A stretch of 64,000 bases of DNA from assembly GCA_038323375.1 (NCBI GenBank), contig JBBQGV010000015.1, positions 974 through 64,973 on the forward strand, written 5' to 3'. Positions 11,539-63,898 of the stretch are shown piece after piece. Numbering within the stretch: position 1 is the first letter of the stretch; each line of letters opens with the position of its first letter. The notes under the pieces were generated by a model, which did no database searches, was not told the DNA's origin, and saw nothing but the letters and a program-made list of their open reading frames with translations. This DNA comes from Chitinophagales bacterium. Lineage in GTDB: Bacteria; Bacteroidota; Bacteroidia; Chitinophagales; Saprospiraceae. The position numbers and the translations under genes were made by a program.

Positions 11539-14500
11539 ATGGATTTCCTAAAACATATAAAAGAATTCAAGCCTACCAGTTGGTCCATCAACAACAAAAC
11601 CAGCGTGTATATCTTTACGATACTCATCACGCTGACGGGGCTTTCCATTTTCATCAGCATTCCCAAAGAGCAGTTTCCCGACGTGGTGATTCCGACGATT
11701 TTCGTTTCGACGATTTATCCGGAAGGTGCGAACCCGGAAGACATTGAAAAGCTCATCACCAAACCCATTGAAAACCAGCTTAAATCCATCAACGGCGTCA
11801 AGCGCGTAACGAGTCGCTCGGTTCCGAACCTTTCTTTGGTCACCGTTGAATTCAACACCGACGTGGAGACTGCCGAAGCCAAACAAAAGGTAAGCGACGC
11901 GGTGGATAAGGCCAAAAACGACCTGCCTACCGACCTCGACCAGGATCCCCAGATTCAGGAAGTGGACATTTCGGAGCAACCCATCATGCAGGTGAATATT
12001 GTGGGCGATTTGCCGCTGACGCAATTGAACAAATACGCTAAAGACCTGGAGGATAAGATTGAAGGTCTCAAAGAAATCACCCGGGTAGATGTCATCGGCG
12101 CACCCAAGCGCGAAATTCAGGTGAATATTGATTTGTACAAAATGCAAATGTCGGGCTTTTCTTTTTCCGACATTGAAAGCGCCATTGCCGGCCAGAACGT
12201 AAACATTTCGGCAGGGGAATTGCGCATCAATGAATTGCGGCGCACGCTGCGGGTCATTGGCGAGTTCAAGAACATGAGCGATATTGAGAACATCATGGTG
12301 CGTTCATTCCGGGGCAATGCCGCTTTTTTGAGAGACATCGCTACGGTGACTGACGGGTTTGAAGAAAAACAGGATTTTGCACGCCTTGACGGCAAAGCGG
12401 TCATTACCCTCAGTGTCATCAAACGCGCAGGCCAGAACCTAATTGGCGCATCCGAAAAAATTGTGGCCATCACGGACGAATACCAACGCACCAAGCTGCC
12501 ACCGGGCGCAGGCATCACGATCACCGGCGATACAGCCGATCAAACCAAAGTGCAGCTCAATGACCTGATCAATACCGTCATTCTGGGCTTTTTGTTCGTT
12601 TTCTTTATCCTGCTGTTTTTTATGGGACTGGAAAGCGCTTTTTTTGTGGCTTTGGCAGTACCGTTGTCCACCATGCTTGCTTTCCTCTTCATGCCTTCGC
12701 TGGGTTTCACGCTGAACATCATGGTTTTGTTCTCGTTGCTGCTGGCGTTGGGGATTATTGTGGACGACGCCATTGTGGTCATTGAAAATACGCACCGGAT
12801 TTTTCATCAGCATCCGGAAATTGACATCAAAACGGCAGCCAAAGCGGCGGCGGGTGAGGTGTTTGCCCCGGTATTGGCAGGTACCCTGACCACGATTGCG
12901 CCGTTTTTCCCGTTACTTTTCTGGCCGGGCATTGCCGGTAAGTTCATGAAGTTTCTGCCGATGACCCTGATCATCACCTTGTTTGCATCCTTGTTCGTCG
13001 CCTTCATCATGAACCCCGTTTTTGCGGTGGATACCATGAAACGCGAAGATGCAGTTAGGAAATCGAAATTTCGGAGAACGTTGCGCCCCATGGCTATTTT
13101 CGGCGTTTTGGCCCTGATTTCTTATTTGGCGGGCAGTCTGCTGATGGGGAACTTAGCCATGGTTTTAGTTTTTTCGGTACCTTTATACATCTTCATCATC
13201 CAACCCGTTGCAGAAGGATTCCAGTTAGGGGCATGGCCAGCTTTCATCCGCGGCTACCGAAATGTGTTGAATTTCCTGGTCAACCGCCGGGGTATGCCTT
13301 ATGTGGCTATTTTCAGCACGGTGGTGTTGTTGTTCCTGTCCATCGGTTTATTTGTTGCCTCCAATCCCAAAGTGGAATTTTTCCCGGAAGGGCAACCCAA
13401 TTTTGCGTTTGTCTATTGTAAATTGCCGGTAGGAACCGATGCCAGCGTAACCGACTCGTTGACCAAATTGATCGAAAAGAAGGTGTACGAAGTCATTGGG
13501 CAAAACAACCCGAACGTCAAATCGGTGATCACCAACGTCGGCATCGGCGCAGGCGACCCGATGGATCCCGACCGCGTTGTGACGCCGCACAAGAGCAAGG
13601 TGGCCGTGGCTTTCGTTCCGTTCGAAAAGCGCCGCGATTTCAATACCGCTGAAACCCTGAATAAAATCAGGGAAAACATCAAAGGCATCCCGGGCGCTGA
13701 AATTTCTGTGGAAAAAGAACCCAGCGGCCCGCCCGTAGGCAAGCCGATTACCGTTGAAATTGGCGGCGACGACTACGAAACCCTGGCAGGGATTCAGACC
13801 GAAGTGATTAATAAAATTGCAGCCGCAGGGATTGAAGGCATTGAAGATTTGCGCTCCGACCTCGTGCGCAACAAGCCAGAAATCCTGATCAAGGTGGATG
13901 TGCCCAAAGCGCAGGCCGACGGATTGAGCAGTGCCCAGATCGTGTTAGACATCCGAAAAGCGCTTTTTGGTTCGGAAGCCTCCAAGTTCCGCGACGCTGA
14001 AGAAGATGAAGATACGCCCATTATGGTGCGCCTTGATCCGGTTTACCGCGACCGACTGGAGGACTTGATGAACATGGAAATTGCCTTTATGGATATGGGT
14101 TCGGGCATGTTCAAACAAGTTCCGATTTCCGCTTACGCTACCATTGAATACACCACAACCTTCACCGGCATCAACCGCAAAGGCTTCCGACGGGTGGTGA
14201 CGTTGGGCTCGAATGTGTTGGGCGGTTACAATGCCAACGAAATTGTAGGGCAAATCAACCAGGTCATTTCTACCCTCGATTTGCCGGAAGGCTACGACGT
14301 GAAGATGACCGGCGAGCAGGAAGACCAGGCGGAAACCACCGGCTTCCTTGGTTCGGCGTTCCTCGGCGCACTGGCGCTAATGTTCCTGATCATGGTGACG
14401 CAGTTTAACAGCGGCTCCAAACCGTTCATCATTTTTTCAACCGTTTTGTTCAGCCTCATCGGGGTGTTCCTCGGGCACGCCATCACCGGCATGACCATGT

Positions 14501-50987: not shown

Positions 50988-51881
50988 ATGATACCGAACT
51001 TCAATTTTCAAAAAAAGAGACTGACGCTGCCTGATCAAACGACCGTGGCTTACTTAGATACCGGGCACGATGCGGCTAAGCCTACCCTCGTCATGGTGCA
51101 TGGCTTAGGCAACAATGCTTCTGTTTGGCTCAGGCTGATGGCGCAAATTCAGGGTCAGTACCGCTGTATTGCCTTAGATTTGCCTGCTCATGGAGATTCG
51201 CAAGCCTGCACCCAAGCGTGTGGAATTAATTATTTTTCAGCAACCGTTGAGGGTCTTATTGAAGGCTTACAATTAGGCCAGGTGATGCTCATGGGCCACT
51301 CTATGGGTGGGTTGGTTTCGATCAAAACTATTTTGCGAAAGCCCACAGTCGTCAAGCAGTGCATTTTACTTGCCCCTGCTGGTTTTGAAACCTTTACGCT
51401 CAAGGAAAAAGCCTGGTTAAAAGCCATTTATGCGGTATGGATGCTCAAAAAGATGAGTGCAGCACGTATGGAACAGCAAACCAGAGAAAGTTTTTTCCGA
51501 TTCCCGCCTGATTTTGAGTTTGCCGTACAGGAAATTATCGCCATTCGCGAATCTCCGGAGGCATTCGAGGCGTACTGCGAAACGCTGTCTTTGTGCATGA
51601 ACAGCCTGCTTAATGAGTCGGTTTTTGATACCCTTTCCACCATTAGTCTGCCGTGCACTGTATTTTTTGGCATAGAAGACCTGACCATTCCCAACAAAGT
51701 CCTTCATCCGAACCTCACAGCCATCGAAGTAGCCGAGCAGGGGACGCGGAAAATTCCCAATGCCACCCTGCACTTGATTCCTGAATGCGGCCATACCCTC
51801 CAATGGGAGGCAGCTGATCAGATTGCTGATTTTTTACTAAATTTGGTTAGCTACTCTTCTTCCGCAGGTTCCGGACGCTGA
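50988..51881 (+). CDS. alpha/beta-fold hydrolase
   Basis: 297-aa ORF. HGLGNN oxyanion region, GHSMGG nucleophile elbow and a C-terminal CGH. Confidence 0.85.
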   Translation: MIPNFNFQKKRLTLPDQTTVAYLDTGHDAAKPTLVMVHGLGNNASVWLRLMAQIQGQYRCIALDLPAHGDSQACTQACGINYFSATVEGLIEGLQLGQVMLMGHSMGGLVSIKTILRKPTVVKQCILLAPAGFETFTLKEKAWLKAIYAVWMLKKMSAARMEQQTRESFFRFPPDFEFAVQEIIAIRESPEAFEAYCETLSLCMNSLLNESVFDTLSTISLPCTVFFGIEDLTIPNKVLHPNLTAIEVAEQGTRKIPNATLHLIPECGHTLQWEAADQIADFLLNLVSYSSSAGSGR

Positions 51882-53052
51882 CCTCTTCCCAAGAACGGCA
51901 ACCGGCTAATCCCAGGGTCAGGTCAATGTCTGCCAACAAATTCGTGATGACCTCGCGAACGCCTGCTTCCCCGCCTACCGCCAGCGCTAAGGCATAAGGC
52001 CGTGCCACCAGTACCGCCTTTGCGCCTAAGGCCATCGCTTTGAATACGTCTGCGCCACGTCGGATGCCGCTGTCGAACAAGACGGTCAGTTCATCCCCGA
52101 CGGCATTGGCAATTTCCGGCAATACCACCAATGAGCCTACCGCACCATCTACCTGCCTTCCGCCATGATTGGAAACTACGATGCCATCCACGCCATAATC
52201 CAACGCTTTTCGGGCATCGTCTATGTGCTGAATGCCTTTGAGTATGATGGGCATCCGGGTGCAATTCCGGATAACGGACAAGTCGTTCCAAGTTAGGCCC
52301 GGCCCGGTAAATACCTTCGTAAAATGGCGGATGGCTTTGAATTTATTTTGCTCAGGGTCGCCGCCTACGGCCTCCCGGAATACCGGATCGCCGAAGTAAT
52401 TGGCCAAGCCGTGGCCGTGCAAAAATGGCAGGTATCCCAGCTGAATATCACGTTCGCGCCAAGCCAAAACCGGGGTATCAAGAGTCACCACTAAGGCCGA
52501 ATACCCGGCCTCTTCTGCCCTCCGAATGACACTCCTTGTAAAATCGTGGTCGCGCCCCCAATACAACTGAAACCAATGTGGGTTTTCTGCGTTTTCCCGG
52601 GCGATGTCTTCCATAGGCATAGATGACACGTTGCTAACCACTTGTGGCACCTTCATGGAACGCGCAGCACGGGCAACCGCCAATTCAGCTTCCGGGTGTG
52701 CAATGGACAATACACCTACCGGCCCGAGTAATAAGGGAGAAGGCAAGCGCTGTCCAAACAGTGTAACGCCCATATCTGCATTAGAAATATCCACCAACAT
52801 ACGTGGCACAATTTGCCAATCATCCAGCGCCTCCTGATTGTTGCGCATAGTTGTTTCCCCGCCAGCGCCGCCTGCAATGTAGGCAAAGGCTTCGGGTGTC
52901 ATTTTTTCCGAGGCTTCTTGAAGTAAGTCTTCATAAGAAACCGGAAATTTATTTTTCCGGTTGAACAGGCCATTCAGGTAAATGTGCATCTGTCGCTCTA
53001 CACCAAAGGAAGGGCGCTCCATTTGTAAGGTATCACCGGTTCTATTTTTCAT
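51847..53052 (-). CDS. FMN-dependent alpha-hydroxy-acid oxidase/dehydrogenase (lactate oxidase/LldD-like)
   Basis: 401-aa ORF with VVSNHGGRQVDG, ILKGI and DSGIRRGADVFKA motifs. Confidence 0.85.
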   Translation of the reverse strand: MKNRTGDTLQMERPSFGVERQMHIYLNGLFNRKNKFPVSYEDLLQEASEKMTPEAFAYIAGGAGGETTMRNNQEALDDWQIVPRMLVDISNADMGVTLFGQRLPSPLLLGPVGVLSIAHPEAELAVARAARSMKVPQVVSNVSSMPMEDIARENAENPHWFQLYWGRDHDFTRSVIRRAEEAGYSALVVTLDTPVLAWRERDIQLGYLPFLHGHGLANYFGDPVFREAVGGDPEQNKFKAIRHFTKVFTGPGLTWNDLSVIRNCTRMPIILKGIQHIDDARKALDYGVDGIVVSNHGGRQVDGAVGSLVVLPEIANAVGDELTVLFDSGIRRGADVFKAMALGAKAVLVARPYALALAVGGEAGVREVITNLLADIDLTLGLAGCRSWEEVSVRNLRKKSS

Positions 53053-53054
53053 AA

Positions 53055-54347
53055 TTAAAATAGTTTATTTAAATAAAAAACTGCCTGAATAAAATTAATT
53101 TCTAATTGATCAAAATGGTATCGTTTGCCTCCTGTTTGCTCGTTTTGCAGCGTGAGGCCGGGGAAATAGCGAACATTGGTGCGCAGTAAAAAGGATTGGA
53201 GGCGATTGGGGCGGATGTCCCATCCAAAAATATACCCCAATTTCCACTGGTCTTCTTTAGCCTGAAAAGCGGTGCCAGGGTTTAGTGCATCCCCGCCAAT
53301 GGCCTCCAACCGTTCCCAGCCCGGGCTTATTCCAATAAAAGGAACAAACCCCTTGTAATCAAACAAAGATTTGCAAAGGTCTAATGACAAGGCTTTGCGG
53401 CGAAACTCCAGCGTACTGCCATAAGCGCTAATTTCACTGTTGATGCTCCGGTAAGACAGGTTGAGGTGCGCGTCTAATTTGTGGTGATAATAGCCTGCGC
53501 CCCATTCTATAAAAACATTCCCCCCCCTGTGTCGGCCCATATAAGGTGCTACATCGGTTGATTCCTTCAGGAAAAAAGTAGAAGAAACGCCCACTGCTGC
53601 TGAAAAGGTATTGAGTTTACCTGCTTTCCCGAGGCGATCCTCCAGCTCTTTGGTACGGCCATTGAGCAAGTCTTCTTCTGCCGAAACCGTCGTGTCCAGT
53701 AAATAACGGTATCCTATTCTGAATTGAAGTGGGGGCAAACGGAGTGTCGAGGCAGCAACCCGATCGAAATAATAAGTAGCCTTGTTGTTGTACATCCACG
53801 TGGCTGACAATTCAAAATAGTGCTTTTTATTGGCAATGGTGCTTACCCCGGCATGAATTGGGTAGCTCACTTTATTGTAATTGGAGCCGTCGTCGCTTTT
53901 GTCGTCTGTTTTACCGAGGTATCTAAAATTCAACGAATTGAAAGACATGCCCACAAAAGGGCTAATTTTTGCGGTATAAGGCGTTTTCCACAAAAAATAT
54001 CGGAAACCGGTTTCTGTGCCGGTAGCATAATCCGTTGTTCGTGTGCCTGATTGCAAATTGAGGATGGGAATGTTGATAAAAAAATCCACTTTCCCCCAAA
54101 AATGCATACCGGAAATATTCAGGTGCGTCGCCGAACGCGGTGCAAAAGAAAGTTTGTCAGGCTCGCTGCCTGCCACACCCGACACCTTCGTTTCCCATGC
54201 GGGGGCATATCCGGTATAGATCCCGAAGCCACTCTGGGCAAAACGGTGTTGGGTTTTAGGAGAAATAACCTCCGAGTTTTCTTGTCCAATGATTATGGTA
54301 TTGGACACAAACAGCAGGCAGCAGAGCGAGACAAATAGACGCATCAT
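53055..54347 (-). CDS. outer-membrane beta-barrel protein, function unknown
   Basis: 430-aa ORF with a signal peptide, alternating aromatic/hydrophilic strands and a terminal ...YLNKLF. It starts 8 nt after the KS-like gene and ends 2 nt before the oxidase gene. Confidence 0.55.
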   Translation of the reverse strand: MMRLFVSLCCLLFVSNTIIIGQENSEVISPKTQHRFAQSGFGIYTGYAPAWETKVSGVAGSEPDKLSFAPRSATHLNISGMHFWGKVDFFINIPILNLQSGTRTTDYATGTETGFRYFLWKTPYTAKISPFVGMSFNSLNFRYLGKTDDKSDDGSNYNKVSYPIHAGVSTIANKKHYFELSATWMYNNKATYYFDRVAASTLRLPPLQFRIGYRYLLDTTVSAEEDLLNGRTKELEDRLGKAGKLNTFSAAVGVSSTFFLKESTDVAPYMGRHRGGNVFIEWGAGYYHHKLDAHLNLSYRSINSEISAYGSTLEFRRKALSLDLCKSLFDYKGFVPFIGISPGWERLEAIGGDALNPGTAFQAKEDQWKLGYIFGWDIRPNRLQSFLLRTNVRYFPGLTLQNEQTGGKRYHFDQLEINFIQAVFYLNKLF

Positions 54348-54355
54348 GATTGAAT

Positions 54356-55621
54356 TTAATTATATCGACTTAAAATAATGGAAGTTGTATTTCCACCAGC
54401 CTGGATGGAGTTGACCATCACCTTTTCCAAAGGTACGTGTTCCAATGTTTCTCCCGGAATGGTCACCCTGGCATTGGTGGGGTTATTAAAATAACTACCA
54501 GCCCAGCCCGTTCCAAGCACTTCTTCGTTTTGCATCATCAGCGCAGCCGCTACCAGCGAAGTTTGGCCCGAAGCCCCAAAAGTTTCCCCAATAAATGGTT
54601 TTATTGTGGTGTAGTAGAGGTCTTCATTTTTCCAGATTTCATCAATTGCCTTTCCTTCGTATTCGTTGTACTGCCAAGGCAGGCAAGAAGCCCCCACGAC
54701 ACAGTCGATATCCGAAGGCGCAAGCCCTGACAATTTTAAGCTTTCCTCCATTACGTGTTTGAAGTCGGCCTCATTTTTTTCAAAGAAGAAATTGTCGTGA
54801 GCGCCGTCAAAGCCGGTATTGTAATTGAGTACTTCTGCATAAATATCGGCACCTCTTTCCAGTGCATGGTCTAATTTTTCCAGAACCACAAAGGCCGCAG
54901 CTTCGCCAATAACGGTTTTTCGCTCGTTTTTTGCATAGTCGAGGGCACGTTTGAGGGCCGTTTCCGCAGTTGTATCGGCATTCTCCGAAGGGCAGTCAAG
55001 CAAATATCCGCTTTCGTTATAAAAAATCAAATGAATGTCCCTTATTTCATCAAAACCACCACAAATAATGATGTCGGCATCGTCATTTTTCAGGAGGTCG
55101 AAGCCGTAGCAAACGCTGTCTTCCCCCATCAGCAAAGAGCTTGAACCCCTGAATTTATAGTACCGCGTGGTGTCGCCCAAGACTGTATTCGACACCGTTT
55201 TTGTGAAGTCGAAAGGACTGGCTTTGCGCGGACCTTCGCGAAACAGCTTTTCCAGATAGGCTTCAACGGCTGCATTGGCCGCCATTGACGTATTCAGAAT
55301 CAGGCCAATCCGATCTGGTGAAAGCTGGTTGCCTTCCAGTTTGGCACTTTTGACTGCCGTTTGGCACCCCAACATGGCGAGTTGGGAGTACCGGAGTGGA
55401 AATGGCGCTTTCAAATCGGCAAAATATTCTTTGATGTTGATTTCCGGACACGGATAAAAATATGTCTGATCCAGCCCTGATTCGTTCCAGGTGTTTTTGA
55501 TAACGACCCCACTTTGTCCGGACTTGAGGCTTTGGTAATAAGTTTCAGCGCCAATGCCGATGCTGGAGACCATGCCTACTCCTGTGATAACGATGCGTTC
55601 ATTTTGTGGTATAGATTTCAT
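54356..55621 (-). CDS. ketosynthase-like protein lacking catalytic residues (chain-length-factor-like)
   Basis: The 421-aa thiolase-fold ORF is colinear with the KS at 62693-63898. The active-site TACASG position reads SLLMGED, and the two His motifs (HGTAT, GHALGAAG) are replaced (GASCLPW, GETFGASG). Confidence 0.75.
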   Translation of the reverse strand: MKSIPQNERIVITGVGMVSSIGIGAETYYQSLKSGQSGVVIKNTWNESGLDQTYFYPCPEINIKEYFADLKAPFPLRYSQLAMLGCQTAVKSAKLEGNQLSPDRIGLILNTSMAANAAVEAYLEKLFREGPRKASPFDFTKTVSNTVLGDTTRYYKFRGSSSLLMGEDSVCYGFDLLKNDDADIIICGGFDEIRDIHLIFYNESGYLLDCPSENADTTAETALKRALDYAKNERKTVIGEAAAFVVLEKLDHALERGADIYAEVLNYNTGFDGAHDNFFFEKNEADFKHVMEESLKLSGLAPSDIDCVVGASCLPWQYNEYEGKAIDEIWKNEDLYYTTIKPFIGETFGASGQTSLVAAALMMQNEEVLGTGWAGSYFNNPTNARVTIPGETLEHVPLEKVMVNSIQAGGNTTSIILSRYN

Positions 55622-55626
55622 AATAT

Positions 55627-56112
55627 TTAGCTAGGTTTGGTAAGGTGAACGGTAATATTTCCTTTAGCGACTACTTCGTTTTGTGCATCCAGTACTTTTC
55701 CGTCATATACCGAAAAGTCCATGAATTTTTGCTTAATGAATACAACTATTGTAAGCTCTGAATTCGGAAAAACCGGTTTAACAAAGGTGGTTTTATCAAT
55801 TTTAATGGCCCGGCCCATCATTTTTTTATCCGATATATTTTCTCCCGATGCAGTACCGATCTGGTTTTCGATCATTTCCATCCGGCCAAAAAGACCGCAT
55901 GTTTGGAACATCATTTCTACCAGAATAACCCCCGGCAGCATGGGATAACCCGGAAAATGGCCCTTAAAAAAAGGCATGTCGGCGTTTACCTGTGTTTTGG
56001 CGGTGAGCGAGACACCGGGTTCGTAGCTTACAATTTCGTCCACCAGCAACATGGGTGGGCGGTGTGGCAATAAAGTTGCCGGTTTGGGAAAAGTCAAGGT
56101 ATTCGTACTCAT
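55627..56112 (-). CDS. FabZ/FabA-like 3-hydroxyacyl-ACP dehydratase (hot-dog fold)
   Basis: 161-aa ORF with HFPGYPMLPGVILVEMMFQ. Confidence 0.8.
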   Translation of the reverse strand: MSTNTLTFPKPATLLPHRPPMLLVDEIVSYEPGVSLTAKTQVNADMPFFKGHFPGYPMLPGVILVEMMFQTCGLFGRMEMIENQIGTASGENISDKKMMGRAIKIDKTTFVKPVFPNSELTIVVFIKQKFMDFSVYDGKVLDAQNEVVAKGNITVHLTKPS

Positions 56113-56885
56113 ATTGTTTGTAATATTTTTGTAGATACTGAAATTTGATCTAATATAGAACGAGACAAATCTGCTTCTGAAAAATGTCGAACATCCATTA
56201 AAAATTGATTTTTACTGGCTACCCAGCATAAATAATCCCTGTCTATTTGTACCGATTTAAGTATGTATTCCTTGCGGCTGGTCAAGGCTGCGTCCATATC
56301 CCGAAGCCCTTTGCCCGAGCATTTCACCTGTGCTTCTAATGCTGTCCAGTCTTCTATGTTGATGGAATCTGCGTGCGTAGTCAGCCCTTTGACGGCTTGT
56401 CCGAAGCGCAAAAAACTGCTTCGGTCTTTTTTGCACTGTACGTCAATGCCTACAATGCCTTCGTAGTTGATGGCACAAGCAATCAAATCCCGGGAATGAG
56501 ACAGGTTAAAGTCAAAATCCCCTACCCGGATAAATGGCCGTCCAAGTGCATCGTATTGCATCGGAAAACTGGCAGGCGATGCATCGGGATATACTTCGCG
56601 GAGGCCTTCGTACACCAACAATTTACTCAGGATCGATTTTAGCCGGTCAGCATGTTTTAAGTAGCGACTCCACCGATTCCGGATGGCTTCCGGAAACAAA
56701 GTCGCGTATGCCAGTAACAGATCCTGAAAAGAATTACTTTTTTCATAATAAGCATAACATAATAAATTCGCCAAAGGTAACTTGCCGTTGCTCTTCAATG
56801 AGTGCCGTACAATTGGCAAGAGACCGGTGCTTGTCGCGAAATACCTGAACGAAGTCTTTCTGTACAATTTCTGAATATTCTGCAA
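56109..56885 (-). CDS. Sfp-type 4'-phosphopantetheinyl transferase
   Basis: 258-aa ORF. FNLSHSRDL, GIDVQ, WTALEAQVKCSGKG. It overlaps the dehydratase start by 4 nt. Confidence 0.75.
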   Translation of the reverse strand: MQNIQKLYRKTSFRYFATSTGLLPIVRHSLKSNGKLPLANLLCYAYYEKSNSFQDLLLAYATLFPEAIRNRWSRYLKHADRLKSILSKLLVYEGLREVYPDASPASFPMQYDALGRPFIRVGDFDFNLSHSRDLIACAINYEGIVGIDVQCKKDRSSFLRFGQAVKGLTTHADSINIEDWTALEAQVKCSGKGLRDMDAALTSRKEYILKSVQIDRDYLCWVASKNQFLMDVRHFSEADLSRSILDQISVSTKILQTI

Positions 56886-56915
56886 GTTTGTAGCTATAAG
56901 TATCCATTGATCTAT

Positions 56916-58127
56916 CTATTTATGAATTTCCAAAACGCCTATATTCAGTAGGTCTCTAATAAAAATTGATTCAAAGCCTTCTTCTTCCATCTCTTGTTTG
57001 AGCTTTATTGACATTTTAAAAAGGCTTTTAAAGCAAGGCTCTGTCAGTTGAAAACACTGGTATGTGCGCTTGTTCAATAAAAAACAGTCATTTTCAATCA
57101 TAAATAAGCCAAAATTGGTTTTATTAAACTTCAATTGGGTATTAGCTGGTAAATCTGCATAATTAGCGGTGCTAATGTCTCGGGTAGTACTCACTTCCGG
57201 CGGTAAATATTTGTGCAGATAAAGCCATGTTTCCCATTGATCGTAGTATTGTATCAGATATTTTTCCAGCTCACTGTATAACTTGCGGGTTACTTCCGGG
57301 ATGTATTCTTTGGGAGCTCCGGCCCACTCTTTGGGGTCTATTTTAGGCAAAAGCAAGACTTTTGGAGGTTTTCTTTCCTCATCCGGATAATAAGAAATCA
57401 CGGGAATAATCGGGCGTTTGTTCATCCAGGAAATGGCTGCAATCCCTTTTCGGGAATTGATTTCCTGGCCAAAAAATGGAATTCTTAAATGAAACTGTTC
57501 TGACTTGTGGAAAATACCGCCCCCACCAGTATTGCCGTCAATGTAGGCAATAATGGATTTGCCTTCATAAAGGCATTTTGAAAGCGTCATGGCAATATTA
57601 GGCGACTCTGCGTTCAAAAGATCAAAAAACGCAGTTACTCCAAATGCTTTGTGTATCTCGGCCACCTTTTTCCGGATGCTGTCTCCCTGACGATGGTAGG
57701 TGTTTTCATCTACAATCAAAACAAAATCAAGACCTTTACTTGCCACAATGCCGATAACCGACCGATAAGACCCCAGGTGGTAGGTACAAATAACCGCCGG
57801 GAAATTTTCGGGTGCTAAAGCAGCTTCTGCACCGACTACGTCCAAGCGGTCAATTAATTCCGGCATCCCGGTTTCTTCATTGAGCAGGGCACGGCCGTAA
57901 AGCAGCTTCAAATAAATATCTTCGTATGCTGACGCTGGTATGTGGGGCAAAAATCGTTCCAGATTTGCCGTCAGAAATGTAAAATCCTTTAGTTGTAGCT
58001 GATCGAATTTCCGCTGTTCCCGCAATTGGATTTCTTGCCTCAACCCTTTGTAGCTCTCCACGTGTGGAAGGACGTTCGGGCTTTTATTTGAACCAGATTG
58101 AAATACAGGTATCGTTTCGACTGTCAT
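56916..58127 (-). CDS. LpxL/HtrB-type (lipid A biosynthesis-like) acyltransferase with an extra C-terminal domain of about 90 aa
   Basis: 403-aa ORF. YHLGSY (Hx4-type motif), a FFGQEINSRKGIAAISWMNKRPIIPV block and QWETWLYLHKY. The tail (FGLFMIENDCFLLNKRTYQCFQLTEP...FIRDLLNIGVLE) resembles a PqqD-like peptide-binding fold. Judged by eye. Confidence 0.55.
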   Translation of the reverse strand: MTVETIPVFQSGSNKSPNVLPHVESYKGLRQEIQLREQRKFDQLQLKDFTFLTANLERFLPHIPASAYEDIYLKLLYGRALLNEETGMPELIDRLDVVGAEAALAPENFPAVICTYHLGSYRSVIGIVASKGLDFVLIVDENTYHRQGDSIRKKVAEIHKAFGVTAFFDLLNAESPNIAMTLSKCLYEGKSIIAYIDGNTGGGGIFHKSEQFHLRIPFFGQEINSRKGIAAISWMNKRPIIPVISYYPDEERKPPKVLLLPKIDPKEWAGAPKEYIPEVTRKLYSELEKYLIQYYDQWETWLYLHKYLPPEVSTTRDISTANYADLPANTQLKFNKTNFGLFMIENDCFLLNKRTYQCFQLTEPCFKSLFKMSIKLKQEMEEEGFESIFIRDLLNIGVLEIHK

Positions 58128-58141
58128 ACGTATTGCTATTT

Positions 58142-59443
58142 TTAATTTAAAACTTCCGTAGCCAACTGCTCTCTTCCTACCTCCTCGCAGTTAAAATTAT
58201 TGAGTGTAAAAAGATTAATGATGTTCAATATCAGCTCAACAGAGGTTTGCATAGTACGATCCTGCATATCCATATCCGGGTTCACCTCAACCAGGTCAAT
58301 GCCAATGATTCGGCGGTCCGTCAGCACCAATTGCAGCAGTTGAATCAGCTCCGAAAGATCCAGGCCATTGGCAACGGGGGTAGCGGTAGCAGGCGCAACA
58401 ACAGGATCTAGTACATCAATGTCAATGGTCAAATAGACTTGTGCGTCCATTGGAATGAAAGACAAGTCGAGTTCATCATGGATGGATTTTTTCAGGTCGC
58501 TGCACCAGAAAACATGCTGTTTCGAATTATGGGGCCGCCCCATGAGGTTAAATATCCCCCTGATTCCCATCTGATAAATGCCTTTTACTTTCGAAATTTC
58601 GAGGCACCGGCTGGCAAAATTGCCGTGATGGTGTACTTTTTCAGCGTGATTAAGACTGTCATACTTAGAGGTATAGGTATCCGTATGGGCGTCCATGTGT
58701 ACGATGTAAATGTCATCAAACACCGCCGATGCAGCTTTTACAATCGGATAGGTTACAGAGTGGTCGCCTCCAAGAAAAAACGGAATATTCCCTTGTTGGA
58801 AAATCTGGAGCGCTGTTTTTTCTATTTTCCGGTAGATATAGGATTTAGATTCGTGGATGCTGACAAATAAATTGCCCAGATCTTTGATTAAATCCTTTTG
58901 CAAAAGTTCGAAAAAACAAGAGTTACTTGAGTCAATGCCTACCGCTTCAAGGCTGTAATTCCCAGCGCTTGCTGCATCTAAGTGCAACTTGTATTCGTTG
59001 GTGTACTCCCGGAGTTTTTCCGGAAAATGCGCACAGCCCACTGATTTGGGATTGCCCCCGCCATAAGGAATTCCGACAAAGCATAAATTGGCAAAATGCG
59101 GGTTTGTTTCGTCGTTCAATCCAAAAAGCGTATGTTTTAGTCTTGTCAGTATAACGAGCTGGTCTTCGAGAATGTCATTCTGAAATACGAGCCCGCGACT
59201 TACAAAAGAAGACAATGCTTGTTGTAGATCACCTGTGGGGTACTGTGGGAAAGCGGCCATAAGACCTTCAAACGTTTTGGGGATTTCCAGAAACCGCAAA
59301 ATGCTCATTGCTGTTTCTTTTACCTGAAATACCTTCCCCGACAGGGTGTTGTACAATTTATGTGCTGCATCTTCTCCTTTTTCGCGCTCTATGAGCAAGT
59401 AAGGCGAAATGATGTAGTTGGTAATTACTTTATTGTTTTCCAT
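58142..59443 (-). CDS. arginase/agmatinase-family ureohydrolase fused to an N-terminal PqqD/RRE-like domain (candidate peptide arginase)
   Basis: 433-aa ORF. C-terminal GGDHSVTYP, HMDAHTD, TIDIDVLDP and DLVEVNP Mn-binding motifs. The N-terminal 90 aa (LYNTLSGKVFQVKETAMSILRFLEIPKTFEGLM...LSSFVSRGLV) are RRE-like. Confidence 0.8.
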   Translation of the reverse strand: MENNKVITNYIISPYLLIEREKGEDAAHKLYNTLSGKVFQVKETAMSILRFLEIPKTFEGLMAAFPQYPTGDLQQALSSFVSRGLVFQNDILEDQLVILTRLKHTLFGLNDETNPHFANLCFVGIPYGGGNPKSVGCAHFPEKLREYTNEYKLHLDAASAGNYSLEAVGIDSSNSCFFELLQKDLIKDLGNLFVSIHESKSYIYRKIEKTALQIFQQGNIPFFLGGDHSVTYPIVKAASAVFDDIYIVHMDAHTDTYTSKYDSLNHAEKVHHHGNFASRCLEISKVKGIYQMGIRGIFNLMGRPHNSKQHVFWCSDLKKSIHDELDLSFIPMDAQVYLTIDIDVLDPVVAPATATPVANGLDLSELIQLLQLVLTDRRIIGIDLVEVNPDMDMQDRTMQTSVELILNIINLFTLNNFNCEEVGREQLATEVLN

Positions 59444-60731
59444 CGCGTCTATTTCTTATCAGGTTTTTAATACTATTCCGCACAATGCCTGAATTATGTT
59501 GATAACGCTTGTAAAAAATAAATGAGAATATGGTCGTAGCAAGTGCTGTTTTTCCCATTGATTCAATGGCACAGACAGAAAAATCGAGCTGATAAATGTT
59601 GTAAAAAACTTGTTTCCATGCATAAAATGCTTGTCCGATAAATTTGATAACGACATAAGCAATATATCCCCAAAATACGTAGCTGCAAATAGAATAAATT
59701 GCCAAAAAAGGGTTCTTTACATTCACTAACTGCCGCGTTCTTTCAGAAACCTGGAATGGCAGGCTGGGAAAAATGCGCTTTAGGAACAAAGTCCACCAAG
59801 CATCTGACTGCAACCGCAGGTTCGGAAGCTTAAATAAATCGCTATAAATCCAGTAGCCGTCAAACCGGAAGAAGGGGTTAAAATTAATGAATATGGTTAC
59901 TGTATTGATAACGATCAGACTCCTGAGTATACTGATGGTTTCCATATCGTAGGAGTTTTTAACCCAGTAAATCAACCCAAGATTAATCAATAACTGGAAA
60001 AATATTCCTCCAAAATTCACAATAATGCGTTTGAGGCGGCTGAGTTTCCAGGTTTCAGTTACATCCGTATATAATACTGGAAAAATAAAATAGAAGCCAA
60101 AACCGATACTTTTGGGTGGCGCTTTGAACAAGTATGAGGAGGCCGCATGCCCCAGTTCATGGATAAAAAGAATGAAAATTGCTACCGGGTAATAGATAAA
60201 AATATGCCCCAAATTTTTTAGGCACTCGGTACCCGAACTGGCAAATGTCCCGCCGGCTGCCGCTGCATCGTTGTATTGCGAAAATTGCTGGATATAATAA
60301 TAATTCAAACCCGCACCCGCCAACAGAAGCGTAAAAAAAGGTATCGGATAAAAAAAGTATTTCAGTATTTCAAGGAGCCATTTAAGCTGCTCAAACCGAA
60401 AAACATCCCAATGGCCAGTAAACCCGGACAGCATTCTGTCGGTTTTGTTTTTTTCCAGGCTTTCATCGTGTATGACCTCACCTGCTTCATTAAATATTTT
60501 AAGAGGTTTAATTTTTTCTTCGATAATTTGGGCAACGGTTTCTTCTGTAAATTCATATTGACCACGAGACCAGTTGTTTAGGCTAACCGTAATTTCCGGT
60601 TTTGTCTTTTTCTCTGTCAGTTGATCTATGATGATACGCAACAATTCTCCTATGTAATAATTGGTGCCATTGATCTGCAACAGGTACTGTTTATTGTCGT
60701 TACCGGTTTCTACTTCTTGTATGGTGTACAT
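59430..60731 (-). CDS. polytopic membrane zinc metalloprotease (M50/site-2-protease-like, HELGH)
   Basis: 433-aa ORF with multiple TM helices and HELGHAASSY inside a helix. Its soluble N-terminal domain of about 110 aa could bind peptide. Confidence 0.65.
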   Translation of the reverse strand: MYTIQEVETGNDNKQYLLQINGTNYYIGELLRIIIDQLTEKKTKPEITVSLNNWSRGQYEFTEETVAQIIEEKIKPLKIFNEAGEVIHDESLEKNKTDRMLSGFTGHWDVFRFEQLKWLLEILKYFFYPIPFFTLLLAGAGLNYYYIQQFSQYNDAAAAGGTFASSGTECLKNLGHIFIYYPVAIFILFIHELGHAASSYLFKAPPKSIGFGFYFIFPVLYTDVTETWKLSRLKRIIVNFGGIFFQLLINLGLIYWVKNSYDMETISILRSLIVINTVTIFINFNPFFRFDGYWIYSDLFKLPNLRLQSDAWWTLFLKRIFPSLPFQVSERTRQLVNVKNPFLAIYSICSYVFWGYIAYVVIKFIGQAFYAWKQVFYNIYQLDFSVCAIESMGKTALATTIFSFIFYKRYQHNSGIVRNSIKNLIRNRRDGKQ

Positions 60732-60790
60732 AATATATTATTTTAATTTTAAATAGAGCTTGGTATAAAAGCGTTGCCGTTAACGCGATA

Positions 60791-60837
60791 ACAAAAAGGG
60801 GCCGGGATATTGAATATGATAACCCCATCCCAGCCCC
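60791..60837 (-). terminator. Rho-independent-type hairpin between the last precursor gene and the protease gene (possible attenuator)
   Basis: Minus-strand RNA reads GGGGCUGGGAU-N18-AUCCCGGCCCC followed by UUUUU. Confidence 0.6.
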
Positions 60838-60939
60838 TTATACGCAATCAAACTAAGTGACTACTAAATTGCAGTTGCAAGAACTACTACAAGGCGTTTT
60901 TCAGTTCTACATGCTGCATGATCGTAAAAAAATCAGGTA

Positions 60940-61080
60940 CTATCCAGCTGCGGGTGGCGCGGCGGGTGTTTTCACTGTGTTGCCACTGCAGCGTGCGGTA
61001 TCCACAGCCGCTACCGTCATTTCAAAACGGCCTTCCAATTCAACTACGGACAATGCATCTTTGATTTCAAAATTGTTCAT
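60940..61080 (-). CDS. candidate RiPP precursor peptide, 46 aa (variant core)
   Basis: Manual translation: MNNFEIKDALSVVELEGRFEMTVAAVDTARCSGNTVKTPAAPPAAG. It shares the conserved 31-aa N-terminal region with the three genes at 61752-62308. Confidence 0.6.
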   Translation of the reverse strand: MNNFEIKDALSVVELEGRFEMTVAAVDTARCSGNTVKTPAAPPAAG

Positions 61081-61161
61081 AATAAGTAAATTTTGGTAAT
61101 TAGAAAATTAGAAAATAAAAATCTCAGTCATTAGCAGTAAACAAAAGTCGGTCATACTAAG

Positions 61162-61323
61162 GGTCGCTGAAATAATAACTGTTCACTTTTCCAGGAGGTC
61201 TTTTGCTCCTACTCTGCGTTGGAGAACCACCTCCCTTAGCTATGGCTAAGGTCGGGAACCCCCGCCTCGGTTAGCCACAAAATGCCTTGCCTGGCAAAAG
61301 CGACACTTGTTAATTCAGCGCCC
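61162..61323. mobile_element. MITE-B copy 1 (162 bp), TIR GGTCGCTGAAATAATAAC / GGGCGCTGAATTAACAAG, TSD CTAAG
   Basis: CTAAG occurs at 61157-61161 and 61324-61328. It is near-identical in length and sequence to copy 2. Confidence 0.75.
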
Positions 61324-61473
61324 CTAAGGAATCAAACAGGATAAAGATGTATTTACCAGATCCATTCTATTGATGTGTATCATTTATAAGTTAGATACCA
61401 TTCGTGAGTTGCCAATCGGTTACAAGTATCTTTATTCCTGCTTTTTTCAGCAATTACTGGCTGTACTTTTCAA

Positions 61474-61574
61474 TTAGTTAGCCAAGGTCCTGGACTCATC
61501 GGAAACCGATTTGTTGATCTTGCTGTCGTTGCAACGTGCAGTATCCACGGCAGCTACGGTCAGTTCAAAACGAT
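61474..61574 (-). pseudogene. 5'-truncated precursor-peptide gene
   Basis: It encodes only ...RFELTVAAVDTARCNDSKINKSVSDESRTLAN. The N-terminal half and spacer are replaced by the junction ...AAAACGAT|ATAATTACGCTTAG next to MITE-B copy 2. Confidence 0.6.
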
Positions 61575-61588
61575 ATAATTACGCTTAG

Positions 61589-61750
61589 GGTCACTGAAAT
61601 AATAACTGTCCACTTTTCCAGGAGACCTTTTGCGCCTACCCTTCATTGAAGAACCGCCTCCCTTAGCTTTGGCAAAGGTCGTGAACCCCCGCCTTGATTA
61701 GCCACAAAATGCCTTGCCTGGCAAAAGCGACACTTATTAATTCAGCGCCC
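61589..61750. mobile_element. MITE-B copy 2 (162 bp), TSD CTTAG
   Basis: CTTAG occurs at 61584-61588 and 61751-61755. The right-hand TSD overlaps the stop codon of the 61752-61898 precursor gene. Confidence 0.75.
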
Positions 61751-61751
61751 C

Positions 61752-61898
61752 TTAGTTGGCCTGAGCAGGTTCAGAAGAGGCCTTCACATCTGCTTTGTTG
61801 TCGTTGCAACGTGCAGTGTCTACAGCGGCTACGGTCAGTTCAAAACGATTTTCGAGTTCTACCACTGACAGGGCATCTTTAGTGTCAAAATTGCTCAT
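61752..61898 (-). CDS. candidate RiPP precursor peptide, 48 aa
   Basis: Manual translation: MSNFDTKDALSVVELENRFELTVAAVDTARCNDNKADVKASSEPAQAN. Confidence 0.65.
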   Translation of the reverse strand: MSNFDTKDALSVVELENRFELTVAAVDTARCNDNKADVKASSEPAQAN

Positions 61899-61956
61899 GA
61901 TAAAAAGATTGATTGATTAAAAAATAGAATTAAGAGACGGCTTAAAATAATTACGC

Positions 61957-62103
61957 TCAGTTGGCCTGAGCAGGCTCAGAAGAGACCTTCACATCTGCTT
62001 TGTTGTCGCTGCACCGTGCAGTGTCCACAGCGGCTACGGTCAGTTCAAAACGATTTTCGAGTTCTACCACTGACAGGGCATCCTTAGTGTCAAAATTGCT
62101 CAT
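61957..62103 (-). CDS. candidate RiPP precursor peptide, 48 aa
   Basis: Manual translation: MSNFDTKDALSVVELENRFELTVAAVDTARCSDNKADVKVSSEPAQAN. Confidence 0.65.
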   Translation of the reverse strand: MSNFDTKDALSVVELENRFELTVAAVDTARCSDNKADVKVSSEPAQAN

Positions 62104-62161
62104 GATAAAAAGATTGATTGGTTAAAAAATAGAATTAAGAAATGGCTCAAAATGATTACGC

Positions 62162-62308
62162 TTAGTTGGCTTGAGCAGGCTCAGAAGAAGCCTTCACATC
62201 TGCTTTGTTGCCATCGCAGCGCGCAGTATCAACAGCGGCCACGGTAAGTTCAAAACGCTCTTCGAGTTCTACTGAGGACAGCGCATCTTTGATTTGAAAA
62301 GTTGACAT
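62162..62308 (-). CDS. candidate RiPP precursor peptide, 48 aa
   Basis: Manual translation: MSTFQIKDALSSVELEERFELTVAAVDTARCDGNKADVKASSEPAQAN. Confidence 0.65.
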   Translation of the reverse strand: MSTFQIKDALSSVELEERFELTVAAVDTARCDGNKADVKASSEPAQAN

Positions 62309-62387
62309 ACTTAAAAATTTAAATGGTTAAAAAATATGAATGAATTAGATTTTGCAAAAAGCGCTAATACCCTGATTGTGTGTTTAA

Positions 62388-62669
62388 TTAGTCTTCTGCT
62401 TCCACCAGCAGGTTGCGCTGAATCATCGCGCTCAGTGTCTCTACGTTCTGGAAGGATTCTTCGTTAAATTCCGTAGGAATGATTCCGAATTCTTCGCCGA
62501 GGCGGGTAGAGATTTCAAGGACAGCGAGGGAATCCTGAATAATTCCGGGATCTTCATCAGTCCCGAAAAACGGCGCATCGTTTTTGATGTCTGCTGCCGT
62601 AATGTCTTCCAATTCCAATACATCAATAATGCATTGTTTTACTTTTTCCTGAATTGCATTGAGTTCCAT
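62388..62669 (-). CDS. acyl carrier protein
   Basis: 93-aa acidic ORF with a DSL phosphopantetheine-attachment motif (IIQDSLAVLEI). Confidence 0.85.
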   Translation of the reverse strand: MELNAIQEKVKQCIIDVLELEDITAADIKNDAPFFGTDEDPGIIQDSLAVLEISTRLGEEFGIIPTEFNEESFQNVETLSAMIQRNLLVEAED

Positions 62670-62692
62670 AATCTTCTATTTTTATAAATTAA

Positions 62693-63898
62693 TTAATTAA
62701 AATTTCTGATTGCTACCGAGGCCATATTCCCTGAAAACCCGAAGGAGTTGGACAGTGCCAGGTTAATTTTATAGTCAATGGCTTTTCCTTCTACCAACCG
62801 AATGTTATCAGGAGTGACAATGGACTCTTTCACGTTAATGGAAGGGGGGACGAAGTTTTTGTAAACCCCCAAAGTTGTAGCGACAAACTCTACACTGCCC
62901 GCTGCCCCCAGCGCATGACCAATCAGTGATTTGGTAGAGCTGACATACACCGGGTGCCCATCTACCAATTGTTCGATGGCCCTGATCTCCATCTTGTCGT
63001 TCGCCAGCGTAGCGGTACCGTGTGCATTGATATAATCTACCTGACTGGGCGTAGCACCGGACATTTTAAGTGCATTGAACATGGCCTGCTTGGCAAAAAT
63101 GCCATCCGGGTGAGGCGCTGTGGCGTGATAAGCTTCGTTGACAATCGAATATCCTGAAACTTCTGCCAGAATCGGCGCATTCCTTTTTTGAGCCGACTCC
63201 AGGCTTTCCATTACTACGTAGGCAGCAGCATCGCCAAGGTTCAAGCCATCCCGGCCTTTATCGAAGGGCTGGCAAGCACCTTTCGACAGGGCAAACAGCG
63301 AGTTAAATCCGCTGTAAGTCAGGTAAGTAAATATATCAACCCCACCTGCAATCATACAATCTACCCGGTTACTCCGGATCAGATCGAAGGCTCTTCCGAT
63401 CGAGTTGGTGCCCGAAGCACAAGCTGTGGAGATCGTAGATAATGGGCCGCGTATGCCAAAATGGGCTGCGATTCGGGAAGTGATATTGGGCGTGATGTGC
63501 AACAACAACGCATAATCCCGCTCTTCGCCTTTAATTTTGTTTTTCACCCAATCCATAAAGGGATAACTTCCTCCAACCGACGTGCCAAGACAAAGCCCCA
63601 CGCGTCTGGGATCGGTGCTACTCAAGTCTAAATTTGCCCTTTCAAGCGCCTCACCGATCGCCCGCACCGACAATTCGCCAAGGATCGTAACGTCTTTTTC
63701 ACGGGCCGCTTCGTAAATACCCTGGTCAATGGTACATCCCTGGCGGCTTCTGAAGAACTCGTCAGACAAGTCAAAGCGTTGAGTAGAAATGTCTTTGAGG
63801 CCAGATTTGCCTTCACGCAGGTTTTGTTCAAATTCATCCAGATTATTGCCGATGGAGCAAATGACGCCCAAACCGGTCACAACTACTTTAGATGCCAT
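62693..63898 (-). CDS. beta-ketoacyl-ACP synthase (FabF/KAS II-like), catalytically complete
   Basis: 401-aa ORF with the Cys-His-His triad context STACASGTNS, NAHGTATLAND and GHALGAAG. Confidence 0.9.
   Translation of the reverse strand: MASKVVVTGLGVICSIGNNLDEFEQNLREGKSGLKDISTQRFDLSDEFFRSRQGCTIDQGIYEAAREKDVTILGELSVRAIGEALERANLDLSSTDPRRVGLCLGTSVGGSYPFMDWVKNKIKGEERDYALLLHITPNITSRIAAHFGIRGPLSTISTACASGTNSIGRAFDLIRSNRVDCMIAGGVDIFTYLTYSGFNSLFALSKGACQPFDKGRDGLNLGDAAAYVVMESLESAQKRNAPILAEVSGYSIVNEAYHATAPHPDGIFAKQAMFNALKMSGATPSQVDYINAHGTATLANDKMEIRAIEQLVDGHPVYVSSTKSLIGHALGAAGSVEFVATTLGVYKNFVPPSINVKESIVTPDNIRLVEGKAIDYKINLALSNSFGFSGNMASVAIRNFN

Follow-up and report, generated by a model that had tools for sequence, protein, structure and literature searches.

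The question raised by the locus described here is whether an enzyme of the arginase fold acts on a small molecule or on a peptide. The locus lies in a stretch of 64,000 nucleotides (the window) from contig JBBQGV010000015.1 of a Chitinophagales bacterium (Bacteroidota, Saprospiraceae; assembly GCA_038323375.1, positions 974 to 64,973 of the forward strand), in which one gene encodes a manganese-dependent arginase (ureohydrolase) domain with an N-terminal extension. The sequence-only reading of this gene had proposed that the extension resembles a RiPP recognition element (RRE; RiPP for a peptide made on the ribosome and modified after its translation), and that such an RRE::arginase fusion would be direct architectural evidence for a leader-guided peptide arginase. 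The data presented below point the same way, and we consider it likely, as judged from sequence, that the protein is an RRE-fused, leader-guided hydrolase converting peptidyl-arginine into peptidyl-ornithine, in an uncharacterised RiPP family of Bacteroidota. Both the RRE matches and the conservation of the family support the proposal, which stays an architectural one, and it is strengthened by two features absent from the sequence-only reading, the tandem precursor genes adjacent to the fusion gene and the RREs of two neighbouring enzymes.

The RRE::arginase fusion

The match of the protein to the Pfam Arginase model (PF00491) extends over amino acids (aa) 119-408 and over profile positions 2-277 of 280, and, with an E value of 2.3e-52 and 178.6 bits versus a cutoff of 22, it is far beyond chance. 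PF00491 is the sole Pfam family recognized in this protein at E<=0.1, and there is no match to PF12640, the family of the OspR-type enzymes. The four motifs named in the sequence-only reading (GGDHS, DAHTD, DIDVLDP, and VEVNP) are indeed found, in a complete arginase fold, with all six ligands of the binuclear manganese center (H228, D251, H253, D255, D341, and D343) present in GGDHS, DxHxD, and DxDxxDP. In a family alignment of 70 sequences, with identity down to 24%, G225-S229, D251/H253/D255, D341/D343, and E386 are invariant, and as these residues persist in such diverged sequences, the domain appears to be an active enzyme under selection.

The closest relatives of the catalytic domain, both among solved structures and by sequence, are agmatinases, guanidinobutyrase, and guanidinopropionase, and the SpeB agmatinase equivalog model TIGR01230 matches with an E value of 1e-41. 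Such similarities, along with the ketosynthase, acyl carrier protein (ACP), dehydratase, and phosphopantetheinyl transferase genes present in the window cluster, would favor a small-molecule amidinohydrolase, acting on agmatine, on arginine, or on a guanidino-acyl starter or product of a ketosynthase/ACP lipid pathway, with the N-terminal domain as a regulatory or oligomerisation winged helix. We regard this alternative as improbable, and one point against it comes from the scores themselves: the 143.4 bits obtained with TIGR01230 fall below its cutoff of 174.3, the 133 bits obtained with PRK02190 fall below a cutoff of 302, and none of the NCBI equivalog cutoffs for agmatinase, arginase, or formimidoylglutamase is reached. 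While the SpeB-type agmatinases and the guanidino-acid hydrolases resemble the window protein in fold and metal ligands and are nearest to it in sequence, they are stand-alone, small-molecule enzymes of approximately 300 aa, whereas the window protein possesses 433 aa, an added RRE, and a place in a RiPP operon.

The N-terminal extension had been estimated at about 200 aa in the sequence-only reading, and this estimate has to be lowered to approximately 118 aa, as the PF00491 domain begins at aa 119 and most alignments with ordinary agmatinases, from many phyla, begin at about aa 100-120 of the query, with shorter local matches for some. The extension is made up of the RRE (aa ~9-89) and some 30 aa of a low-confidence linker. 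A search of genome contigs with the full-length family alignment produced no true family members and was flooded by ordinary agmatinases, because its patterns were drawn from GGDHS and DIDVLD, and these agmatinases, serving as a control, do not possess the N-terminal domain.

The first ~90 aa had been described as PqqD/RRE-like, and of the two parts of this description the RRE winged helix stands, while the PqqD model of Pfam (PF05402) gives no match. In fact, aa 1-120 of the window copy have no match in Pfam even at E<=10, and none among the NCBIfam models, and PF05402 recognizes only three of 45 family members, weakly (best E 0.026). With both databases silent on this region, the assignment had to come from a profile of the family and from a modelled structure. 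The profile, for which the N-termini of 45 full-length homologues were aligned, matches aa 4-93 of TigE (8VPO, one of the RRE reference structures in PMC12710340) with an E value of 4.7e-10; the matched region is the N-terminal RRE of TigE, a RiPP maturase of the radical-SAM/SPASM type. A match to the RRE region of CteB is weaker (E 0.22). The AlphaFold2 (AF2) model of the domain, with a mean pLDDT of 75.6 and values of 79-90 across aa 11-90, predicts four strands, then three helices, then a last strand, with a disordered linker behind them (elements E9-12, E16-20, E28-32, E37-41, H43-51, H58-64, and H70-82). When this model was compared to the PDB by Foldseek, the top ranks were taken by TigE, TbiB1, TfuB1 (6JX3), MccB, TruD, LynD, CteB, PbtF-RRE, PqqD (5SXY), and SuiB; 17 of the 18 top matches are RREs or RRE-containing maturases, with TMt values of 0.63-0.70 to the stand-alone RREs. 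This count includes TruD (rank 7), a cyanobactin heterocyclase like LynD, which we take to be RRE-containing. Thus, the profile and fold searches that had been suggested as a test of the N-terminal domain both place RREs at the top, and not an unrelated fold, and by the profile and the model together, aa ~9-89 are a genuine RRE-type winged helix. The top matches in both kinds of search are peptide-binding RREs and not DNA-binding regulators, which argues against the regulatory role that a small-molecule enzyme would require of this domain. The same arrangement, a homologous N-terminal RRE fused ahead of a catalytic domain, is known from TigE, CteB, and SuiB, in which the partner is a radical-SAM domain and not a ureohydrolase.

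The distribution of the fusion, a survey of which had also been proposed, turns out to be broad. The 433-aa product is 100% identical to an "arginase family protein" of a Saprospiraceae metagenome-assembled genome, and its full-length homologues number more than 100, with lengths of 380-442 aa and alignments over 85-97% of the query, the named hosts all belonging to Bacteroidota (Saprospiraceae, Chondrinema, Spirosoma, Pedobacter, Fibrella, Neolewinella, Aquimarina, and Sungkyunkwania). When the profile of the N-terminal domain was run against 1.84 billion representatives, 159 matches were obtained at E<=1e-3, and among the best 150 of these, 65 possess GGDHS along with DxHxD, 12 possess the radical-SAM motif CxxxCxxC, and 37 are short. 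This domain and the arginase motifs are therefore combined in 65 or more clusters (50% identity), and, by these sequence criteria, the RRE::arginase fusion is a conserved family and not a one-off. Members of this family, and of the precursor family described below, are annotated merely as "arginase family," "agmatinase," or "hypothetical."

Precursor peptides and the target arginine

Four tandem open reading frames (ORFs) of 46-48 aa, along with one 5'-truncated copy, are found between the protease gene and the ACP gene, upstream of the fusion gene. They follow the pattern M..KDALSVVELExRFE(L/M)TVAAVDTARC, after which comes a variable tail, and in the four intact copies Arg is present at positions 18 and 30 only. 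Where the copies differ in a codon, the change is mostly a synonymous one (12:8, 12:7, and 5:2), indicative of purifying selection on these ORFs. No Pfam or NCBIfam model covers them, and Rfam has no match in the precursor region. In an alignment of 19 precursor sequences, no variation is seen at E14, L15, E16, R18, or E20, and 18 of the 19 possess R30 and C31. A profile search expands the family to 218 clusters, every one annotated as "hypothetical." In the best 120 of these clusters, on which all the motif counts are based, the leader motif ELExRxE is present throughout (120/120) and a downstream RC in 118, the distance from the leader Arg to the RC Arg being exactly 12 residues in 99 of the 118, while exactly one downstream Arg is present in 96 of the 120. 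The tail past RC is hypervariable, measuring 3-21 aa. A fixed spacing of 12 residues fits an anchored enzyme, and the retention of one Arg at such a spacing is a further argument against a small-molecule substrate. The two precursors without RC, P0385 and P0420, possess a Lys in place of the Arg (..DTNKCDD..), a variant to be expected if the Arg serves to become a primary-amine side chain. The contigs of both are metagenomic and, at 1-2 kb, too short to show either presence or loss of the arginase.

Relatives of the precursors also adjoin the RRE::arginase in other genomes. Twelve genomic contexts were compared (the window itself, L001-L003, and L084-L091), some reached through the enzyme and others through the precursors; one or more precursors, an HExxH membrane protease, and the RRE::arginase are found together in all 12, and a putative acyltransferase is found in nine. 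Purifying selection on the ORFs, their presence beside the enzyme in each of these contexts, and metal ligands that do not vary among 70 diverged sequences make it very improbable that the arginase domain is dead or a mere scaffold and that the small ORFs have no role as substrates. Genes of fatty-acid type (a ketosynthase, a ketosynthase-like gene, an ACP, a ketoreductase, a FabA/ApeP-like dehydratase, a phosphopantetheinyl transferase, and an AMP-ligase) accompany some of the clusters only, and three minimal clusters (L085, L088, and L089) possess none. The fusion stays beside the precursors and the protease in these minimal clusters, again at odds with a small-molecule role in a lipid pathway. 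An ornithine-lipid-type small-molecule pathway was likewise considered, and it was rejected on account of the three RREs encoded in the cluster and the clusters devoid of fatty-acid genes.

A different alternative retains the peptide substrate but changes its nature: the arginase may need a substrate already modified by acylation or Cys chemistry, or may target R18, or a C-terminal Arg exposed after cleavage between R and C. There is precedent for the first of these, as KgrD and PbsE act solely on pre-modified substrates (PMC12703449, PMC12257519); in addition, the invariant Cys beside the Arg suggests coupled chemistry, and R18 is strictly invariant. At the same time, in the minimal clusters the acyltransferase is the sole other tailoring enzyme, R18 is part of the motif that the RRE most probably holds, and the replacement by Lys falls at the RC position and not at R18, so that we consider this alternative unlikely. 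As to the conserved Cys, a role as a lipoprotein signal (as in DAG-RiPPs, PMC13056109) was considered and rejected by eye, since the N-terminus is acidic and non-hydrophobic and an Arg at -1 does not make a lipobox.

The precursor array is interrupted by two copies of a 172-nt element (61157-61328 and 61584-61755; 90% identical), each predicted to fold into a long imperfect hairpin of about -75 kcal/mol on the minus strand. No further copies are found in the window, and Rfam has no match to it; it looks like a small insertion resembling a miniature inverted-repeat transposable element (MITE). The insertion probably destroyed the start of a fifth precursor, whose remnant (61474-61582) abuts the second copy. 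Among the precursor tails of the window, that of the remnant alone has an additional Arg.

Neighboring enzymes and the proposed pathway

The start codon of the RRE::arginase gene overlaps the stop of the upstream protease ORF by 14 nt, as had been pointed out in general terms before. The protease matches the NCBIfam models daptide_HExxH (1.2e-21) and YydH/LiaK (4.8e-14), both under their respective cutoffs, and is related to the daptide and the YydH/LiaK RiPP proteases. Its cytosolic N-terminus is homologous to the RRE of the arginase (hhalign probability 92.8%, E 4e-7). Downstream of the RRE::arginase is a gene annotated as "hypothetical protein," the putative acyltransferase. The window protein itself has no match in Pfam, and the lipid A acyltransferase model PF03279 matches 34 of 48 members of its family. 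Its AF2 model (pLDDT 89.6) is placed by Foldseek next to PatA (2.4e-11) and LpxM (3.3e-11). Searching the PDB with the sequence profile of the family produced spurious matches to designed TIM barrels alone, which were rejected, the PatA/LpxM relationship having come from the fold search. The C-terminal ~70 aa of this protein again have the bbbb-aaa-b order of elements, with a Foldseek probability of 0.99 for the TbiB1 RRE and an hhalign probability of 90.1% to the RRE of the arginase. To all appearances, no acyltransferase of lipid A type that bears a peptide-recognition domain has been described. In this family H117, D197, R226, and E299 are invariant, and HLGSYR stands in place of the usual motif of HxxxxD/E type.

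From the domain identities, the conserved catalytic residues, the near-invariant Arg of the precursors, and the synteny, we infer the following pathway, including its modification site, its chemistry, and the order of its steps. The N-terminal RRE (aa ~9-89) would bind the leader segment (..VELExRFE..) of the 46-48 aa precursors encoded upstream, and the tethered binuclear-Mn ureohydrolase would hydrolyse the guanidinium of the RC Arg at position 30, producing peptidyl-ornithine and urea. The freed delta-amine would then most likely be acylated by the PatA/LpxM-like acyltransferase, guided by its own RRE, the acyl donor being an acyl-ACP supplied either by the ketosynthase, ACP, and dehydratase genes of the cluster or by primary metabolism, and the RRE-bearing HExxH membrane protease would cleave off the leader. 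The last two steps are modelled on the selidamides (PMC12703449, PMC13647313), and by the same analogy the product peptides are probably lipidated; acylation may instead take place on the neighboring Cys or on the new N-terminus.

A number of observations weigh against this scheme. The catalytic domain is nearest to agmatinases, enzymes of small molecules, and nothing that was examined in it gives a sign of an opened active site. The N-terminal domain is not recognized by the Pfam hidden Markov model for PqqD. A second invariant Arg, R18 inside the leader motif, is a possible alternative target. Finally, the acyltransferase was not found in three of the 12 contexts (L001, L002, and L091; flanks of 8-10 kb examined), and, as the enzyme is missing there, acylation of ornithine by a PatA/LpxM-like acyltransferase cannot be universal.

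Peptide arginases are already established, as the OspR family and KgrD, enzymes of the ureohydrolase fold, are documented to convert peptidyl Arg to Orn (PMC12703449, PMC10028609), and the window enzyme looks like an addition to these, from within an uncharacterised RiPP family. The OspR-type enzymes (OspR, KspR, PhaR, FlmR, OhkR, and PbsE) share with it the proposed conversion of peptidyl Arg into Orn and urea, leader-dependent RiPP maturation, and a position in a RiPP cluster beside Arg-containing precursors. However, they belong to PF12640 and not to PF00491, with atypical motifs, a dimerisation insert, and no RRE described (PMC10028609, PMC12703449), and in OspR the leader is thought to bind the dimer cleft, whereas the window protein possesses canonical GGDHS and DIDVLDP motifs and a fused RRE. 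KgrD, of the enteropeptin pathway, comes closer, being a PF00491 Mn arginase encoded in a RiPP cluster and converting a peptidyl Arg beside a Cys-derived residue into Orn (PMC12703449). It requires a substrate with a thiomorpholine installed by a radical-SAM enzyme (PMC12703449), while no radical-SAM gene is found among the annotated genes at 54356-63898 of the window, and it further differs in its Enterococcus host, its precursor family, and the downstream N-methylation. We came across no report of an RRE fusion in KgrD, which is set apart from the window protein here by description and not by sequence.

In the selidamides, an arginase acts first and the ornithine is then acylated (PMC8784127, as cited in PMC12703449), with Lys able to take the place of Orn as the acyl acceptor (PMC13647313). 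The parallel with the window cluster is in the proposed unmasking of Arg as Orn followed by N-acylation, and in Lys as a natural alternative acceptor. The enzymes are different, a PF12640 arginase and a GNAT on one side and a PF00491 RRE fusion and an acyltransferase::RRE of PatA/LpxM fold on the other, non-homologous in both instances; the window has no lanthionine synthetase, its host phylum is Bacteroidota, and its acylation step is a proposed one. We hold it nearly as likely as not that the cluster represents an undescribed class of ribosomal lipopeptides of Bacteroidota, in which three enzymes, each bearing its own copy of one type of RRE, would act in sequence: the arginase unmasking an ornithine amine at RC, then N-acylation from acyl-ACP by the PatA/LpxM-fold acyltransferase, an enzyme of lipid A/PIM type that would have been recruited to peptides, then release by the protease at the membrane, as a full, non-homologous reinvention of the selidamide logic.

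In the literature searched, whose coverage is incomplete, so that an earlier description is possible, there is no RRE-fused arginase, no precursors or cluster of this type, and no lipid A-type acyltransferase in a RiPP pathway, and arginases are not mentioned in the main text and one supplementary file of the RRE survey paper. Peptide arginases are sought after as tools for placing ornithine into ribosomal peptides, and substrate recognition by the OspR-type enzymes is still unexplained. If the proposal is correct, a canonical arginase fused to an RRE, in combination with a short leader containing ELExRxE and a target 12 residues further on, would make a simple and portable Arg-to-Orn catalyst, and would mean that the PF00491 fold was recruited to peptides a second time, independently. 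If peptides are indeed the substrate of the lipid A-type acyltransferase, that would be without precedent in the literature searched. The surrounding module points to an unmined family of lipopeptide RiPPs (218 precursor clusters and at least 65 fusion clusters). The arginase module also appears to be portable across RiPP chemistries, as it is combined elsewhere with LanB and LanC-like enzymes (L086, Pedobacter sp. PAMC26386, with six identical precursor copies), with a radical-SAM enzyme (L087 and L091), or with a LanKC-type enzyme (L084).

The wider gene cluster

Coordinates, all in the numbering of the window, are collected in Table 1.

Table 1. Features of the RRE::arginase locus, with positions, strand, and the basis for each assignment.
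Feature	Position	Strand	Basis
RRE::arginase gene, 433 aa	58142..59443	(-)	ORF listing
N-terminal RiPP recognition element (predicted), aa ~9-89, bbbb-aaa-b	59177..59419	(-)	AF2, Foldseek, family profile
Arginase/ureohydrolase catalytic domain, aa 119-408	58220..59089	(-)	PF00491 E 2.3e-52; PDB agmatinases 1e-25 to 1e-22
GGDHS motif, aa 225-229, Mn ligand His228	58757..58771	(-)	Invariant in 70 sequences
DAHTD motif, aa 251-255, Mn ligands D251, H253, D255	58679..58693	(-)	Invariant in 70 sequences
DIDVLDP motif, aa 341-347, Mn ligands D341, D343	58403..58423	(-)	Invariant in 70 sequences
VEVNP motif, aa 385-389, E386 invariant	58277..58291	(-)	70-sequence alignment
Precursor peptide copy 1, 48 aa: MSTFQIKDALSSVELEERFELTVAAVDTARCDGNKADVKASSEPAQAN	62162..62308	(-)	ORF search
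Precursor peptide copy 2, 48 aa	61957..62103	(-)	ORF search
Precursor peptide copy 3, 48 aa	61752..61898	(-)	ORF search
5'-truncated precursor remnant (..RFELTVAAVDTARCNDSKINKSVSDESRTLAN)	61474..61582	(-)	Abuts 172-nt repeat 61584-61755
Precursor peptide copy 5, 46 aa: MNNFEIKDALSVVELEGRFEMTVAAVDTARCSGNTVKTPAAPPAAG	60940..61080	(-)	ORF search
HExxH intramembrane metalloprotease, 433 aa	59430..60731	(-)	NCBIfam models, hhalign
Protease N-terminal RRE-like domain, aa ~4-86	60474..60722	(-)	hhalign
Protease HELGH motif	60147..60161	(-)	
PatA/LpxM-like acyltransferase (putative), 403 aa, domain aa ~22-307	56916..58127	(-)	PF03279 family matches, AF2, Foldseek
Acyltransferase HLGSYR motif	57762..57779	(-)	
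Acyltransferase C-terminal RRE (predicted), aa ~331-401	56925..57137	(-)	Foldseek, hhalign
Acyl carrier protein	62388..62669	(-)	PF00550 E 2e-4; position conserved in L001-L003
Beta-ketoacyl synthase	62693..63898	(-)	PF00109 and PF02801
4'-Phosphopantetheinyl transferase-like protein	56109..56885	(-)	AASDHPPT_N 9e-6; HetI and AcpT models
FabA/ApeP-like dehydratase	55627..56112	(-)	PF07977 6e-20
Second, divergent ketosynthase-like protein	54356..55621	(-)	PF00109 + PF02801 ~1e-11; fabF model 9e-44, under cutoff

The lipid-type genes resemble type II systems of the aryl-polyene type more than a housekeeping fatty acid synthase, judging from the divergent ketosynthase-like protein and from weak matches of the dehydratase to ApeI/ApeP. 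The former, inspected by eye, is without the usual context of the active-site Cys and would be chain-length-factor-like. In the closest syntenic relative, L003, a gene for an AMP-binding ligase (12531-14027) is located between the acyltransferase and the phosphopantetheinyl transferase genes, while no such gene is present at this spot in the window (56885-56916). The ketoreductase and the other upstream genes of L003 would fall past the end of the window (64000). A gene for a protein like FMN-dependent alpha-hydroxy-acid dehydrogenases (51847..53052, named solely through its L003 homologue) and one for a predicted outer-membrane beta-barrel of approximately 430 aa trail the cluster both in the window (51847-54347, minus strand) and in L003 (16546-19682), suggesting that the two belong to it.

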